Assembly (NCBI GenBank): GCA_964199315.1
Contig: OZ116710.1
Span: forward strand, 2,108,001 to 2,172,000
Length of the DNA: 64,000 nt
Direction of reading: 5' to 3'
From: Orbicella franksi
Lineage: Eukaryota
Part shown: positions 23,956-34,331 of the stretch, one piece after another
How positions within the stretch are numbered: the first letter of the stretch is position 1
How the letters are laid out: each line of letters begins with the position of its first letter
The notes under the pieces: model-generated
Told to the model about the DNA's origin: nothing
The model's database searches: none
Seen by the model: the letters and a program-made list of their open reading frames with translations, nothing else
Made by a program: the position numbers and the translations under genes

Positions 23956-25332
23956 TCTTCTGTTTGTGGAGAGAAGTGTGCGAAGTGAACGCTCCTGAGT
24001 TTCAGCCTCCACGGTCTTTTTTTTTTTTCACTTTTGAGGACAAGAAGTTAAAACAGAGCAGGAGCTCCTGACGGTTTTGGCGAATTTAATAGAATGCATG
24101 TTTATATCTCAGATATGAAACGATAATTTAATTTTGATTTAATCATTTTTCGGAAGAAACCTCTCCATCCCTTTTTCAGTGTAAATATAACAATACAGGT
24201 AAATTGTATAGAAATAACTGGTACATACTAACGAGTGCGTATACAAAATTTAAAAATGCGTGCGGATTACAGAGATGGCTTAAATTAAAGTGTAAAGTTG
24301 CTGATTAAGGGAAGAGTTCACTATTCTATTCAATTTGCATCTTCTGTAACATTTGCACTGATGAAGGCAGAAGTTTCTGCCAAAACATGTTTGTAAAATT
24401 TATTGTCGTTTATATCTGAAATTGGTTGTGACTTTCCTGCGGTCCAGACCTTTTGGTAAAGTTTATATTGGTTTAATGGATTGCCTGATATATTGTTTTA
24501 TTTATATAACTGAGACAATTACTTCATTTTGATTGGCTGAGAGTAGGCAAATCTATCGTTAATTTTTAATTTGCACTGCAGTGCAAATACGCGCGCGCTT
24601 TCGTGATTTTCCCACTCATATAATAAATGCGTAATCGCATAAAGGCTCGCCGAGCAATTAAGGATCTAAACTACTTGTTAGTGTTTGAAAATTCTTTCCA
24701 ATTGCACTCGCCTAAAGGTTCGTGCAATTTTGAAGGAATTTTCAAATATCGCTAGTAGTGTAAATCCCTTAATTGCACACGCATTCATACGACTACCTAT
24801 ACAAATTTTCACTTTCATGGATAATTACGCTATGGCAACCCAGGACATATGGCGGTGTTCCGTACGTAATAGTTGCTGTGTGTTCTCAGTATAATTATGA
24901 GTCTCCCAACATAATTATGAGCCGCTCGGCATAATTATTTCCGCTCGTGTTAAAAGCAACCACGCAGGATAGAATAGTTTCCACCTCGTTGTAATCGGAC
25001 AGTGTAATCGGACGGTTGGCTGTCATCGGACAGTTACACGAGTCAATCATTCTAAGTCCTCTCCACTAAATCCATCAATAACAACATTGATTACAGTCAC
25101 TATAGTAACCAATTCAAGAGACTGACTTTGTAACTTTGTGAAGGTTTAGTTTACAGTGATTGTTTTGAAAGAAACTTAACAGCCATTTTGCGAGCTATTC
25201 CCCTATTCTTAATTATGATATTTAAAAATGACTATTAAAAGCTATTTTTCAAATAGTGTGAGATTGTAATGGTTATAATTAATTGGTAACAGGACATCGG
25301 GTCGTCCAATTCAGTCTGTAATCATATTCATG

Positions 25333-28300
25333 CAGTGCCGTAGCACGGCGAGCGCCCCCCCCCCCCCCAAAAAAAAAAAAAAACTTTGACTAGCACGTAA
25401 TAAAAATATTCGAAAGCAGAAAAGTAATAATGTTGGGATACTGTTGGATTCTTTTAGCGTAATTAACACTCTGGTTAACCCTAATTTTTCTTTGTAACGT
25501 TTTACAACAAATGTCAGGCAAATTTTTTTTTCAAACTCTTACAAAGTTTAAAGCAGCGAAACCCGAAAGTGGTGTTGGATTTTTGTGTTTGACCGCTGTA
25601 AACTGAGCCAATAATCTTGGTAGGCACCTTCGGTCAGCGGCCACGTTCTTCCTGCTTGTTTCCAGAACCATTCAACATTCGGTTCGATAAAGCATGAAAT
25701 TTTATGGCTTCGACAGGGAAAAATCAAGAGTCTTTTAAGCAAAACACAATCCTCAAATGGGTGGGACCTGATCGTGAGCCATCGAAGCCATCAAAGAATG
25801 AAAACCGTGAAGAACAGGCTCGTTTAGAAGAAAAATCCCAAGCTGGAACATCTGGCCCACAGGCAGCAGGAACTTCAAGAACTTTGAATTCAAGCATAAT
25901 CCCCACAAGCCAAGAACCTGATTTACTGGCACCAGGTCTGGTATCAGTGTTACAAAGCCCCAATCAACCCAAGAGCTGAACAGCGGCCATGGTTACATTA
26001 CGACAAGAAAACTGATATTGTGTTTTGTTTGATTTGTATGAAAGCCATCCGAAATAATATGCTTTCCTCGGCAAAGGCTGATCCGAAATTTACGCGGATT
26101 GGCTATGGGAACTGGAAAAATGCAATGGATAAAAAGAAAGGGTTTCAAAAACACAAGTCATCTGAATCTCACAGGGAAGCAGTAGCCAGATATGTTACAG
26201 CCTCAGCAACAACAGTCGGCGATGTCGGAGAGTTGTTTTCTGACAAGCATGCAAAGGAAAAAACAATAAAGAGAAGAATTCTACTCCCGATCCTTTCAAA
26301 CGTCCGTTATTTAACTCGACAGGCTTAGCCACTTCGAGGAAATTGGGACACCCACGTGCACAGTGCAAATGAATATAACTGAAACTTCTATCAACTGCTG
26401 AAACTGCGATCTGAAGAAAACCCAAGAATAATTGAGTGGTTAGATCGCAGAACTGAAAAATACGCATCCCCGATTATACAGAACGAGATGCTCGATGTTC
26501 TTGCTCTAGGTAAGAAATTTAGTAGAGGTGCATGAAGAAGAAAAGGGGAAGTGCGAATCACAAACAAAAAACAATGAAAAAAGGTAGTCTGGAAAGATGG
26601 GATTTGAGCAAAATTTGGACTGGGAAATGGGATTTGTAGCCCCCATTGACAACCCTCTTAATAATATCCATTATTGTGCGAAAATATATATTAAAAACGT
26701 AAAAATCCATACGTTTCGAGGCTGCTGGCTCTTCATCAGTGGTGAAAATGCAAATGAAACTATCTTCTTGCTCTAGGTATGCTGCGGGAAATATCAGAGA
26801 ATATTCAGAATGCTAAGATCTTTACAATAATGGCCGATGAGACAGCTGATGTGTCTCTCAAGGAGCAACTAGTTGTGTGCATTCGTTGGGTTGACGACTT
26901 GTTCGTTATTCATGAAGACTTCACGGGGATGTTGCCATTGCCGAGAACCACTGCTGATCAGATCGTAGAAACACTAAGGGACGCACTGCAGCAAATGAAT
27001 CTCAATATTCAGAATGCTCGTGGTCAGTGCTATGATGGTGCTGCAACAATGGCCGGTGAGAAAACTGGAGTGGCAACAAAGATTAAATCTGTCAATGCAA
27101 AGTGTTTGTATACACACTTTTATGGCCGTGCCTGGAACTTGACTGTTGCTGATGCCATAAAATCAGTGAAATATATGAGTGATGCACTTGATACAGTCAG
27201 AGAAACTGGAAAGGTGGTGAAAAAGTCCCCGCAAAGAAACACACAATTAGATAAAATTAGGGAGGAAACCACAAATGAATCTCGCGGAGCTCATGCTCTT
27301 TGCCCGACGCGATGGACTGTTTCGTGGCGAAGCATTAGCATCGGCGCTAAACGACCATGGTGAACTCGATCATGGAGCTTTGGGATTGGTCACTTGAGGT
27401 ATCGAAAGACACAGAAATGAAATCGAAAATACTGGTGTGAAAAGTGTAATGACGCAGTTTAGTTTTTTCTTTGGTTGTTGCTTAGGCGAGAAAATTTTGC
27501 GACAAACCGACTACTTGAGCCGTGCTTTGCGGAGTTCTTCAATTTCAGAAGCTTAAGAAAATATACTGGCTCGGGATGTGGTTAAAACCTTGTTAACAGA
27601 TCGAAGCGATGAGTCATTTGATCTCTTTTGCGCTCGCATCTTAAAGAAAAAAGACAAGGAAATCAAGTCTATTGAAGACCCAGTGCCTCCGAGAAGGATG
27701 AAAACACCGGAAAGGTTCGAGCTTGGAAACCACCAAATTCATCATTTTCCTCAAACCGCCAAGGAACACTAAGAACGAGTTTATTTTGAAGCCATTGATT
27801 TTGCAACTACCGCCGTCACATCAAGATTTGACCAGAAGGACTTTAAAGTGTACGTAAACCTCCAGGAGCTCCTTTTGAAGGCTACTGCCAAAGAAGTGTA
27901 TGATGCTGAACTGGCCGAAGTTTTGAAAGTTTATGGTGAAGATTTAGATGCCTACCATCTTGCATTGAAGGCCAGCTGTTACTCCTCCCACAAGTCGCTG
28001 CCTCAATGGGGTTTGACACGTCAAGATTCAACATTGATGACCTAATATCATTTTTTCAGTCAATTGATGGTTCCCACAAATTGCTTCTGTCTGAGATTTG
28101 CACACTGGGCAAGTTATTGTTGGTAATGCAGCGATGAATGCCGCAAGTGAGCGGTCATTTTACGCTTTAAAGCGCGTAAAGACATATCTCCGTTCAACAA
28201 CTGGAGACGCAAGGTTGAACCATCTCATGATGCTTCACATCCACAGGGACAAGACTGACACGACTGACCTGGTAGCTGCAGCCAACCAGTTTGTTGGCAA

Positions 28301-28702
28301 ACAGGAGAACAGAAAACAGTTGTTCGGGACATTTACCCCAAATGATTTGCCACGAAAACTGTCTTTGGTCTCGCATGCAACCCAAGCATCCGAATGAAAT
28401 GAAATGGTTCGTGGGGTCTATGTAATAGTTAAGTATTTATTACACAACACTGTCAATTTGTATAATAAACCTGTTCAATTAGGAGAGTACAACGTTCATG
28501 TAACATGTCCGATCAATGACTTTAGTCAGTTAAACATTGTTGTAAACTGCTCTCAGAAGGCTGGAAAGGCTATTTTAGAGAGCCCAGATTTCAAAACCTT
28601 CTGGGGGTGGGAGGGGGGGCATGCCCCCGGACCCCCCTAGAAGCTCGCGCCTTCGGCACTCAGTCGGGTGCCCCCAATAGATTTTACCCTGCTACGACAC
28701 TG
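25333..28702 (+). mobile_element. Decayed hAT transposon (ZMYM1/THAP12-like transposase) with 5-bp TSD
   Basis: TCATG|CAGTGCCGTAGCA ... TGCTACGACACTG|TCATG. Transposase fragments 25704-28397: WLHYD..VFCLIC (TTF-type zinc finger), IMADETADVSLKEQL, QCYDGAATM, ASERSF.ALKRVKTYLRST...RLNHLMMLHIH (hAT dimerisation domain). Several stops and frameshifts. Confidence 0.9.
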
Positions 28703-29109
28703 TCATGATTAACAATGGGACTCCCGCTTCGCGGTCGTCCGATCTTGCTAATCAGTCGTATGATATCCCTGCCTCTAGGATATTTTCACTTTGCAACATT
28801 TTTTTTACAGTTTTATTTATTTGCAGTACAAATTACAATTTACCATGAAAACTTACACTACCCGCGTATTAAGCGTAGGCTAATCGAGACGGGCAGCTTA
28901 ACACATGATAATATCATAAAACTATAGTAAGTTTTGATTATTGCATAGAGAGATCTTAACAATAAAAGTTTTTTACATGTTGTTTATTATAGACTTTCCT
29001 CTTTCGTTTGCCTTTTACGGCATTAAGCGAAACAGTTTCTCCCTAGATTAAACTCCATGTTTGCCTGAGCATGCGCGTACTCGTCGTTGAATTGCAATTT
29101 TCATGATCT

Positions 29110-29290: not shown

Positions 29291-32200
29291 TTAGAAATCC
29301 TCTGGTCTTGTTTTCATCTCGGTCTTCTTCAGGGAGTATTCATGTCCCTTCCAATTCTTCCAGTTCACACCAACACCAAAGGGCGAGGGATTTGTATGAT
29401 GGTACTTGCCATTCAGGTTGGATCGGTGACACGGGGAACTGTACCACCAGGCCCCGTGAAACCTGCTCGCACAGTGTACCTCTTCTTGCCCGTTCTTATG
29501 CTGATCATTATCTTGATCTTTAGTGGAAAATGGTTGATCGCCATGATGAGAAAGAGAGTCGCTAGCATTACCTGAATATCAAATTAAAAAATGAATAACT
29601 GTCATGCGAGACCGAGGTATTCTATATTCCGTTTAATTGTTCAATATTTTTCGAAAATTAGCCTGTTCTAAATGCCCCATATCCCATTATTCATGTTTCC
29701 CCTAAATATCTCATATCCCGATTTATTTTTACTAATATCCCATATCCCAGAAACGCCTAATAGGGCCACCTTTTGGTTGGTTTACGATACGCCTGGGGTG
29801 GGGAGGAGGGGGGTACGTCGGTAAATTTCGGATGTGTCCCAGGGGTCTTCAACTTTGACCCTATTTAAGGATGAAGCAAACGCCACCCTATCACGGGGAA
29901 AAACAAAAACCAAGAATAGCGTGAACGGTTCAACTAAATTTCGTTTCACTGGAAATTTCCAAATAGTTAAGTCTTAACAGATTTGTTTAGCTGGGCTACC
30001 CTACAGTAAAGAATCACACCGGGAATACAATGCCAACAGGGGCAAAAATAACACGCTATTTAAGGATCGACAACGTTAAAAACCATACCCTATCCCGCGG
30101 CATATATGCATAGCTATATAGCCCATATATGGGACTACCCCTCCCGGGACGATACGATTACATTGTAGAACGTTGGACCGTTGAAAGTTAATCCTTTTGA
30201 TATTCCCTGACGTCACTTTCGAATTCCTTATAAGGAAAAGTTAACAAGTACAATATTTGCGTGTTATACAGTAGATTGTCGTGTTTCCATGGTTTCACTT
30301 CAGTGGTCCGTATTGAATACTGGAATACCATTCGAAAGGCAAATTGCTTACTCTGGGTTTAATCGGTGATAAGTATGGACAGTTTATTTGTAGATAGCTG
30401 GGTCATATCCCATCCCATCCTGTCCCGGATTGTTTTTTCAGCCCTTATGGTGATTAAATCCCCCTTTCACCCTTGTAAGTGACTCATCGCTAACTCTTAG
30501 CTTCCATTTACAACATGTTATGTACAACATTTTGACCACTGATTGTTAAATTTTAGGCTGTTTGAGAGTTGAAGCCGATTAACCTTCGCAACTCTCGGTG
30601 AGAGTTGACAAATTTATTTTTCAATCTTTCAGAAGTCCTCGCTGTTGCTTTTACCCACTGGATAAAGGACAAAATTATAAGTCTGATAGGCCGAGAGAAC
30701 TGATCTTTTTTTCTTAGATTAAATCATCTGAGTATGAACCGAGTATCAAATTTATTTTTCAATCTTTCAGAAGTCCTCGCTGTTGCTTTTACCTACAGGA
30801 TTTCGTATCTACAGCTGTGTACACGAAAAAAGGACAAAATTATAAGTTTAAAGGCCAAGAGAACTGATCTTTTTTTCCTTAGATTAAATCACCTGAGTAA
30901 TTGCCGAGTTTCAGCTTGTACTTGTCATTCTCACTCATAACACCAAACTTGTTATACTCGGCATAAGTGGTATTCCCTTCAAAGTCTTCCAAGTCCACGC
31001 GCAGCATGCTGTTATTATCTGATGTCAGGCGGTGAATTTTGTCCAGTCCAAGCCAAAATTCATCATTCAGGTCACCAAAACCAACTTTGTAATCGTTCCA
31101 GTTAAGGAAAAAATCAACAGAACCGTTCAGTCTCTTCTGGAACACTGTCCACCCCCCACCGTCTGTTGTTTGGTCACAAAACACATCAAAGGCAGGCAGA
31201 TTATCAGGTTTGATGGTGTACACACCGTCTGTTGTTTCACCAGATTTGTAGATCTCGGCACAGTTTTTGTGCACTGCAGGAGAAACGCAAAATCAGGCCC
31301 AGAACTTGAGCTTGGGAGAATTTGTTTATAACGTTTTAGAAGTATGTATTTTCAGAAAATGTCAGAGTATACAGTCTCTATACCGATACCTTGATTGCAG
31401 GCTGTTTCAGTGCATTTAGTGGGACAAATACAACGAAAACCTTTATTGGTGAATCCAGCTTGACATATGCTATAGTTCAAACACGGGCTGCTGCTACAGG
31501 GATTCTGCTCAGAAGAAAATTATAGAGAAAAAAGAAAATTAAGTCCCATTCTATTGCAAAATCGTATTTGCTACTGCTGAAATTTTCCAGAAATAAGAAT
31601 AATTAACATCTAGGTAGTTATAAATATCTTTACACTATTGGTACATAGTATTGAAACGATTAATATTAAGGCGAAGACAACGAGCTTACTTAACAGCGAG
31701 TTTGATGATAGAAACACTAATTGCAATAGGGGGCTTATTGACCAAAACACATGTAACGAGATGCTTATCAGAAAGGGAGCTGTTATTGGAAGAAGGGCGG
31801 TAAATTGAATCACAAAGGTACCTACTCTTAAAACGTTTATTAAGACTGTTACCTCAATGGCCAGATAGGTGTAACTTGGTTCATTTTTAAGAAAGGTGAA
31901 AAACTGGTTTTCATCCGTAACGTTGTTCAACTCGCATTTGTGTGTTCCTCCCCTTAAAGGTCCCAAATTGATGGAGACACAGTTGGGCTCCATATAACAC
32001 AACACTCGACAAGTCCCTTCATTAGGGACTTCCTCACTCCTGATCACGTGATTCTTCATTGCTCTGTTTGCCACTGGTTCCTTGAATATGATGTTGCGAC
32101 CATCGTCGTCTTTGAAAAACAAAACAAAGCATAAAATTTATTAACTTTATGCTTATACAAAAGCTGATTTTTTTTTATAGGCCTGGAAGCGGAGTTTAAA

Positions 32201-33230
32201 AGTTTATATATAGCGTGTCATTAAGCGCTGCTAAAAGAGGAGGCAAAAACAAAGCCGAAAATGATTACGGACGTTTTAGAGAGCAGGTGGTGAAAAATAT
32301 AGTGTATATCTCTTTTACTGGTGGCAGATCATTCCATTAGCAGCAATACCGAATTCAAAGTACATACACTAAATATTGAAACAAACTTTTGTTTGAATCA
32401 CCAACATAAAAGTTATTCGAAACGCAGCAAAAATGTGTGTCAGGGAAACTTTTCGGAGTTACAGTCTCCGAGGTAAATAACAAGTCAATACGCACGGTTG
32501 ATATCAGTTGAATCTCGCTATTTCTAATCGAACTCTCAGGGGAAACGGAAAATAGTTCGGAATAGCCGATGGTAAATGACTGAAGAGCAACTCCAAGGTA
32601 AATGGTTTTAAGTTCGAAATAACGGGATATTCGAAATAACCGAGTTCAAATTATGGGGTCCGACTTTATCTGACATGTCAGAGCAGGCGATAATGCAGAG
32701 AATTCAACTAGAGTAGATCTAACAATTTGCATGCAAAATCAAGAGATGTGGAAAACCTACTAAAACTAACAAAAAATAGGGTAGGTGTAGAGTTAATTTC
32801 ACGCTGGTGGAAAAGTGGAACAGTACACGGCACCGCAGAGGGTCCATGTGTTTGGAGGATGTAGTTCATGATATGAGTGTTGATAGTGCCTTACGATGAA
32901 GTGCATTAACCTAGCATTTTATCAGGTTCCTTTAGTACTTCTCCAATCGCTGGGGCTGAGGCAGTTAAGAGAGTAGAGTGGCTTCCCACGAAAAGCAACA
33001 CAGGCCAGAGCTAAAACCCCAAATTGTTCGATCCGGACCTGAGACAACCTCACTAGCATTGGGTTTACCGCACCTTCTTTGGAGAATATTCTTGTGATTC
33101 TACACGTTACACATTAAGATATGTACTTACCGGAGCAACCAAAACATAGTGGGTATATGACTCTAAGCGAAATAGTCAGGATACACACAATAGTTACGAT
33201 TTTACACTCGGAAATCTGAAAAGAAGCCAT
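29291..33230 (-). CDS. FReD gene B2: secreted signal / PAN-like / EGF / fibrinogen C-terminal domain protein, 377 aa
   Basis: Exons 33230-33131 (MASFQISECKIVTIVCILTISLRVIYPLCFGCS), 32109-31853, 31504-31390, 31273-30893, 29571-29291; phases 1,0,1,1; 1134 nt in frame; ends YSLKKTEMKTRPEDF*. Confidence 0.88.
29790..30150. mobile_element. Probable MITE in B2 intron 4
   Basis: G-rich left end (gggaggagggggg tac) and complementary right end (gactacccctcccggg); non-coding. Confidence 0.4.
30609..30909. repeat. Tandem duplication of the B2 exon 4 / intron 4 junction
   Basis: 30609-30746 and 30747-30909 share aaatttatttttcaatctttcagaagtcctcgctgttgctttt ... gagaactgatctttttt..ttagattaaatca.ctgagta. 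Confidence 0.85.
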
Positions 33231-34331
33231 CCTTTTGGATGTTTGTGGCGAGTCGTACGAAAAGTGATTGCTCGTGAGTTTAAGTAAGTAAATATCACTC
33301 ACTTTTGACAGGAAGGCAAACCTAAACAGATTGTCATTTGTCACGAACTTGAACTTAATGCCATAGTCATAAATTTTTTATATCAGTCCAACATTGTTGA
33401 GTCGTGGGTTTGTTTTAATTAATTTATCATACAAGACGAGAGCATCTATGATAAGAATTTACTTCTCCTCTCCAAGCTAATTACCTAGCACAGATATAGC
33501 TGATAGCTGGATAAAATTTTTACTGTGAGCTGAGAAATGACTGACGCGTTTTGCCACTGACAGCTGAGGACTGATGCTTGCAAAACTTTATTGGTAGTTG
33601 AGAAATGGGTTGAAATTTTTACCTTAGAGTCGAGAAATCGTCGAAAATTCAACCGACAATTGAGATTCTGAGCTCCCGGCCCCATGCATCTCCTCCTATC
33701 AGTCAGTGGCAAAACGATGATAAGACATAATGGACCAAAGAAGTTTGGCTTGATTAAGGCAAAATAGTCAAAATAGGCGCCTCTATTCTTAAAGACATCT
33801 ACGCTGCTTTTAAAACTTCAAAGTTTTTTTTTTGAAGTCTATTTGTACACCTGTCCAACAACTCAAACACCCACGAGTTTTAGCATTTTTTTTTAGATCA
33901 AACTGAGCTTCGCCGAAAATGTGATCTTCCATATCTTGAATTTCTTTCCAAGCTGGCGATATAATATAACAGCTTCTTAACCCCGGCCGAGATTTAACGT
34001 CCTTCAGTTTAGTAGAAAAGGAGTTATATCTTCTAAGAAATACTTATTATCCCTGTTTGCTGATAGAATAAACTGAATGGACATAATTAGCAAAACTTCA
34101 CCCAATTATCCACCCGCATGAGCGGATGAGCGGATATTGTGTCAAAGCGATTAATTGTCATTTGCAAAGCCTTCAACTGCTCTTGAACGGAAATAGGCAA
34201 GCAGAAATGCCGATTTCCAAATTGCAATCACTTGCATTAGCGAAGATTCAGTCGATTATTATAGCTCATGGTCTAACGCAGTGTCTGTAGGTGATCTAGC
34301 TAAAAAGGAAGGAAAATAGAAGATATATTAA

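Follow-up and report, generated by a model that had tools for sequence, protein, structure and literature searches.

A Penelope-like insertion with intron-shaped edges in a broken hAT transposase of Orbicella franksi

An insertion that duplicates AG|GT at its target can create intron-like edges, which raises the question of whether a locus with such edges has in fact gained one. The locus considered here lies in a 64,000-nt stretch of Orbicella franksi DNA (contig OZ116710.1, positions 2,108,001 to 2,172,000; hereafter the window), where a first-pass annotation described an apparent intron gain caught in the act inside a hAT transposase. The plus strand carries the 15-nt sequence TTCTTGCTCTAGGTA at 26498-26512 and again at 26765-26779; the window has no third copy on either strand. 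Base composition puts the probability of such a 15-nt match at any one position at about 1e-9, or at 3e-7 if the AG and GT are given free; a chance origin of the repeat is excluded. The putative intron, a 267-nt insert at 26510-26776 (plus strand), starts with GTAAG and ends with CTCTAG. The left copy of the repeat contributes 12 nt through AG, plus the GTA that makes a donor-like site, while the right copy supplies the pyrimidine run and AG of an acceptor-like site. Judged by eye, the window copy has good splice signals, with an AG|GTAAGA donor and pyrimidines at 11 of the 12 positions before the acceptor AG, and no other AG occurs in the preceding 35 nt. In silico removal of the 267 nt yields ...IQNEMLDVLALGMLREISENIQN, which is in register with ...IQNEMLEVLALGVLREISENIQN of the intact family protein P0003, so that the transposase frame is restored exactly, as had been proposed. 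The insert and its AG|GT-containing repeat are likewise real in the window copy, and the perfect repeat is confined to it: sister copies match at 14 (L002 and L091) or 13 (L003 and L004) of the 15 positions, and the core common to all copies is 12 nt ending in AG.

The host element and its duplicated copies

The insert lies in a full-length hAT element of 3370 nt (25333-28702, plus strand), with 13-nt terminal inverted repeats CAGTGYCGTAGCA at 25333-25345 and 28690-28702 and an apparent 5-nt target duplication, TCATG, in the flanking sequence (25328-25332 on the left, 28703-28707 on the right). The element sits between tandem fibrinogen-domain genes of opposite strand and, with its hAT5-like 5-nt duplication (25328-25345 and 28690-28707), is inserted in another dispersed repeat. 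The neighboring genes, which encode PAN and fibrinogen-C domains, form a tandem array on the minus strand (21858-24005 and 29291-33284 in the window; G000:C13, ~2.03-2.14 Mb). This array has been duplicated in blocks, and the blocks bear the dead hAT four times.

The DUF4371/hAT-dimerisation transposase of the element (25704-28397, plus strand) is a pseudogene. Its frame was compared with that of P0003, an 821-aa protein with DUF4371 and hAT dimerisation domains (Pfam) that is 88% identical to the window transposase across the downstream 184 aa; an NleF Pfam match beside these domains was below the cut-off and was taken as chance. A 65-nt frameshifting deletion at ~25977, ~530 nt upstream of the insert, is found in all five insert-bearing copies (L001-L004 and L091) and in none of the four insert-free loci measured. 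Relative to P0003, the window copy also has five stops, among them those at 26326 and 26380, and several frame breaks, including some near P0003 residues 466, 675 and 730. The dN/dS ratio is 1.06-1.24 in the four deeper (between-pair) comparisons among genomic copies, 2.42 and 0.55 within pairs, where changes are few, 0.89 to L091, and 0.26 to the insert-free relative L089. Because the upstream frameshift is common to the insert-bearing copies, stops are present and dN/dS is close to 1, the host gene is dead. A new intron calls for a functional gene, and on these same three counts the transposase is not one. Two further observations concern the family at large. The annotations of Pocillopora, Montipora and Acropora include transposases that cluster with P0003 within 90% identity, a likeness across coral families that might reflect horizontal transfer. 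A 430-nt contig from RNA run X18 joins both hAT ends, skipping 2598 nt (25733-28332), and is likely an internally deleted non-autonomous derivative.

A genome search with a 901-nt query returned at least four copies spanning the whole query, on one contig and all insert-bearing. Since the other three copies carry both flanks of the window copy, the four arose by segmental duplication and not by transposition. The copies fall into two pairs, ~1% apart within a pair and 4-6% between pairs. The own-genome relatives L052 and L053 were set aside as comparisons, the site being outside their coverage.

Identity of the insert

The first 15 nt and last ~100 nt of the insert are collinear with a single dispersed repeat that has at least 25 matches. 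On the opposite strand, this repeat directly follows the stop codon of a 274-aa frame in L065/L119 that ends in a zinc-finger-like linker and a GIY-YIG domain, the Pfam match to the latter (E 1.4e-4, score 22.5) being just below the cut-off of 22.6. A C-terminal GIY-YIG domain with such a linker is described as the layout of EN+ Penelope-like elements (PLEs) in PMC8557442. No reverse transcriptase was found among minus-strand frames of at least 90 aa in 8 kb of sequence surrounding the longest copy. The motif that the first-pass annotation had taken for a retroelement end (acgtttcg...cttcatcag, at ~26711-26739) falls in a stretch that resembles a minimal type I hammerhead ribozyme. Using the criteria described in PMC4209133, which lists minimal hammerhead traits for PLEs, and reading the motif by hand, we found the core intact in family copy L064, with a 5-pair helix I, a 5-pair helix II with G10.1-C11.1, an extra base past the core, and a palindromic ACGT. 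In the window the motif has decayed (26707-26742, minus strand), with a mismatch in helix II and helix I down to 3 pairs; an Rfam scan of 25300-28800 gave no hammerhead and three sub-threshold matches. Thousands of such motifs are described for a coral genome (PMC7229834), and passages of a preprint link hammerhead repeats to PLE ends, with intron creation unmentioned in those passages (bioRxiv 10.64898/2026.07.22.740005).

Judged by these alignments, the insert derives from the 3′ end of a GIY-YIG PLE in antisense orientation, of which ~130 nt are present, including a minimal hammerhead that has decayed. The suggested retroelement origin is therefore borne out, with the GIY-YIG-linked repeat and the hammerhead pointing to a Penelope-like element. 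The extreme 3′ end, which matches the family terminus, is at 26508-26524 (minus strand), and the remainder of the 3′ region is at 26664-26761 (minus strand). Between them lies a nested 132-nt piece (26525-26656) with a right half that resembles a dispersed repeat of MITE type. The piece is bordered by a 7-nt duplication (26518-26524 and 26657-26663), which is a perfect CTTAGTA in L003, L004 and L091. Since the MITE-like piece split the Penelope parts later, the first insertion was ~128 nt including its duplication. Copies of the Penelope-like family have one end in common and the other variable, and 4 of 13 terminus matches are flagged as tail-like, in keeping with the 5′ truncation and 30-40-nt tail of EN+ PLEs. 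Several Penelope-end copies (L070, L071/L073, L075, L078, L083 and L085) form short inverted structures that fold back on themselves, an arrangement already described for PLE insertions. L130 was rejected as a family copy, with a 17-nt match and nothing more of the family. Elsewhere in the window, another hammerhead-like motif (CTGATGA...AAAC), recognized by eye, belongs to a different repeat family (24359-24393, plus strand), and nested inverted repeats of 31-33 nt form a palindromic block at 20207-20302.

Splicing, mode of insertion and empty sites

No 26509-26777 joint is listed in the four RNA runs X15, X18, X22 and X24, although this is a weak test. An X15 contig covers 25600-26596 and 26670-27133, crossing both donor and acceptor unspliced, with a 73-nt gap that has AT..CC ends, and X18 contigs are unspliced across the donor (26218-26658) and the acceptor (26690-27074). 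Such contigs drop rare forms, are strandless and may derive from DNA, and are compatible with low-level splicing; moreover, the runs bear an organism label different from that of the best DNA match. X22 gave 0 matched reads with 12% of the run read and provides no test, while the 19 reads from X24 come from Penelope repeat copies elsewhere, so that the raw reads of these two runs have no junction coverage. The search for spliced reads thus returned read-through contigs in two runs and a splice joint in none.

The donor varies among copies. The window copy reads GTAAG and L002 GTGAG, whereas L003, L004 and L091 read ATAAG; canonical GT-AG edges that restore the frame are therefore present in the window copy and L002, and two of the four genomic copies (L003 and L004) lack a GT donor. 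Evidence on the donor base in other individuals comes from L091 and, indirectly, from X15. Taking these data together, we consider it probable that the insert is an unspliced, neutral Penelope-like insertion, antisense in a broken hAT transposase, to which the AG|GT duplication is incidental. The locus is likely a nested transposon fossil with intron-shaped edges. The proposal of intron gain caught in the act is unsupported because the frame is broken upstream in every insert-bearing copy, the insert predates duplications that are ~5% old, the donor is AT in two of four copies, and the RNA examined reads through with no splice joint. Of the wider claim, intron creation by insertion with a target site duplication, the derived insert, the duplicated AG|GT and the retroelement end stand, while the status of intron is unsupported; a merely disruptive insertion, the outcome named in advance as refuting that claim, fits best.

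The exact restoration of the frame and the good-looking splice signals of the window copy would also suit an insertion into an intact gene that was spliced via the duplicated AG|GT and decayed later, or low-level splicing today in the copies with GT. The X15 contig hints that GT is the older state, in that it has indels as in L003 and L004 and no difference at 26510-26511 among those listed. We nevertheless regard such a fossil gain as unlikely, given that the upstream frameshift is common to all insert-bearing copies, that no dispersed insert-bearing copies were found, and that the X15 and X18 contigs read through both sites. In addition, an insertion of the same family into an AG|GT target, L136, left AG|AT, which by analogy may favor AT as the first junction state here too. 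Copies that differ by 4-6% elsewhere are identical in a 169-nt tract that spans the acceptor (26678-26846; simulated p 0.02-0.03 in comparisons with no longer tract), which would otherwise count against the reading favored here. We read it as putative gene conversion because a 193-nt tract occurs elsewhere and the copies that have the 169-nt tract in common lack the donor.

How the insertion arose is suggested by its relatives. The first-pass annotation had proposed a search for other copies of the insert with duplications of about 15 bp, and family copies do have duplications of similar size: 13 nt, ending in AG, in L128 and L136, and 10-13 nt in L069 and L074. In L128, L136 and the window, the AG of the duplication abuts the element end (AG-ATAAAG), the target being AG|GT in L136 and the window and AG|AA in L128. 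Thus, all three tail-less insertion events with a clear duplication end in AG, and two (the window and L136) hit AG|GT. The search pattern for the terminus demands AG and so cannot show a preference for it, leaving the right-hand duplication copies as the ones that count; 1 of the 13 terminus matches starts with GT, and L002 does not fit the pattern. We infer priming by short pairing between element end and target, which would give AG at the far end each time, with the first bases normally being the AT of the element. A remaining lead is that the family terminus may pair with AG(A/G)T targets. The hAT would have inserted between the fibrinogen-domain genes, after which a 5′-truncated Penelope copy (~128 nt with its duplication) may have entered through target-primed reverse transcription. 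The element end, which reads AGATA on this strand, would probably have paired with the target AGGTA, and 12-15 nt would have been duplicated. The MITE-like piece would next have landed 15 nt inside the Penelope copy. The whole block would then have been duplicated along with the gene array, and its copies appear now to be decaying neutrally.

A bolder extension holds that the Penelope-like family primes on AG(A/G)T, so that its antisense insertions keep duplicating proto-splice sites and act as a coral intron maker, of which this locus would be a once-spliced fossil. This reading rests on three insertion events, and we think it very unlikely. For introners, many similar introns are expected in unrelated genes; we found four copies at one site, and the single GT among the terminus matches.

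An origin in double-strand break repair, with Penelope cDNA captured as filler at a staggered break and no element endonuclease involved, is consistent with the short, truncated insert, with the few unassigned bases at its 5′ junction, and with the filler that adjoins the duplication in L074. It is nonetheless hard to credit, since the insert end coincides exactly with the family terminus and other family copies repeatedly show duplications of similar length. Break-repair and endonuclease origins have the same consequence for splicing.

The absence of the insert from related elements bears on its age. Insert sites were compared in 7 of 11 metagenome loci (L088-L094, with L095-L098 left out). 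L091 is a sister copy that bears the insert. The site is uninterrupted, with a single copy of the target, in L089 and L090 (86% DNA identity, probably the same locus sampled twice), in L092 and in L094, and because of these empty targets the insert is derived, not an old common intron. Of 176 proteins, 144 could be aligned and 123 of these cross the site ungapped, a count that was not used as evidence, some being annotated spliced products. L088 and L093 are more distant relatives (49-74% per segment) with two canonical GT-AG introns (860-1130 and 1347-1465 in L088), and their comparison with the closer relatives, which have no intron near the studied site, indicates intron turnover inside the hAT lineage. 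One of their introns, 271 nt long and in phase 0, sits 13 nt upstream of where the insert lies, a distance that brings it within 1 nt of the repeat's left edge. The idea that such an old intron shifted and was later filled by repeats, also named in advance as a refutation, is largely refuted and barely credible: this intron differs from the insert in phase and has no sequence likeness to it (a score of 21, matched by 67 of 300 shuffles), L089/L090, L092 and L094 have an intron at neither place, and two repeats explain the insert almost end to end.

Comparison with known systems

The locus cleanly illustrates how the insertion of a retroelement can give rise to a sequence shaped like an intron. 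It also cautions that a perfect AG|GT repeat should not be called an intron before both the host gene and the RNA have been examined. If the AG(A/G)T preference were true and spliced insertions occurred in working genes, PLEs would become a further source of introns. The word “penelope” occurs 0 times in the main texts of PMC9860276 and PMC12130899, and no report of Penelope-made introns was found in open-access main text, as judged by title and the start of the abstract.

The host resembles hAT5 elements, which are described as making 5-nt target duplications (PMC12730594), in its DUF4371 and hAT dimerisation transposase, short terminal inverted repeats and apparent 5-nt duplication; the TCATG duplication is seen at one insertion site only. 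The family of the insert resembles EN+ PLEs of the Neptune/Nematis type, as described in PMC4209133, PMC8557442 and PMC7229834, in its C-terminal GIY-YIG domain, zinc-finger-like linker, 5′ truncation, minimal hammerhead, and ~40-nt tail on some copies. It differs in that only the last ~130 nt are found here, the ribozyme is decayed, and no full-length parent was recovered.

A standard model of intron creation has a transposon inserting into AGGT (PMC3443670), and the likeness lies in the duplication of AG|GT, such that precise splicing would restore the coding sequence. In contrast to that model, the host here is a pseudogene, splicing is unseen, and the donor is missing from half of the genomic copies. 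Some reported introners draw both of their splice sites from the target, and non-LTR introners make up ~5% of classified cases (PMC9860276, PMC12130899, PMC11282704). The recruitment of splice sites from a duplication, together with the existence of non-LTR introners (PMC9860276, PMC12130899), parallels what is seen here, but the present locus records one insertion event, not an intron family, and the end of its element reads AT, not GT.
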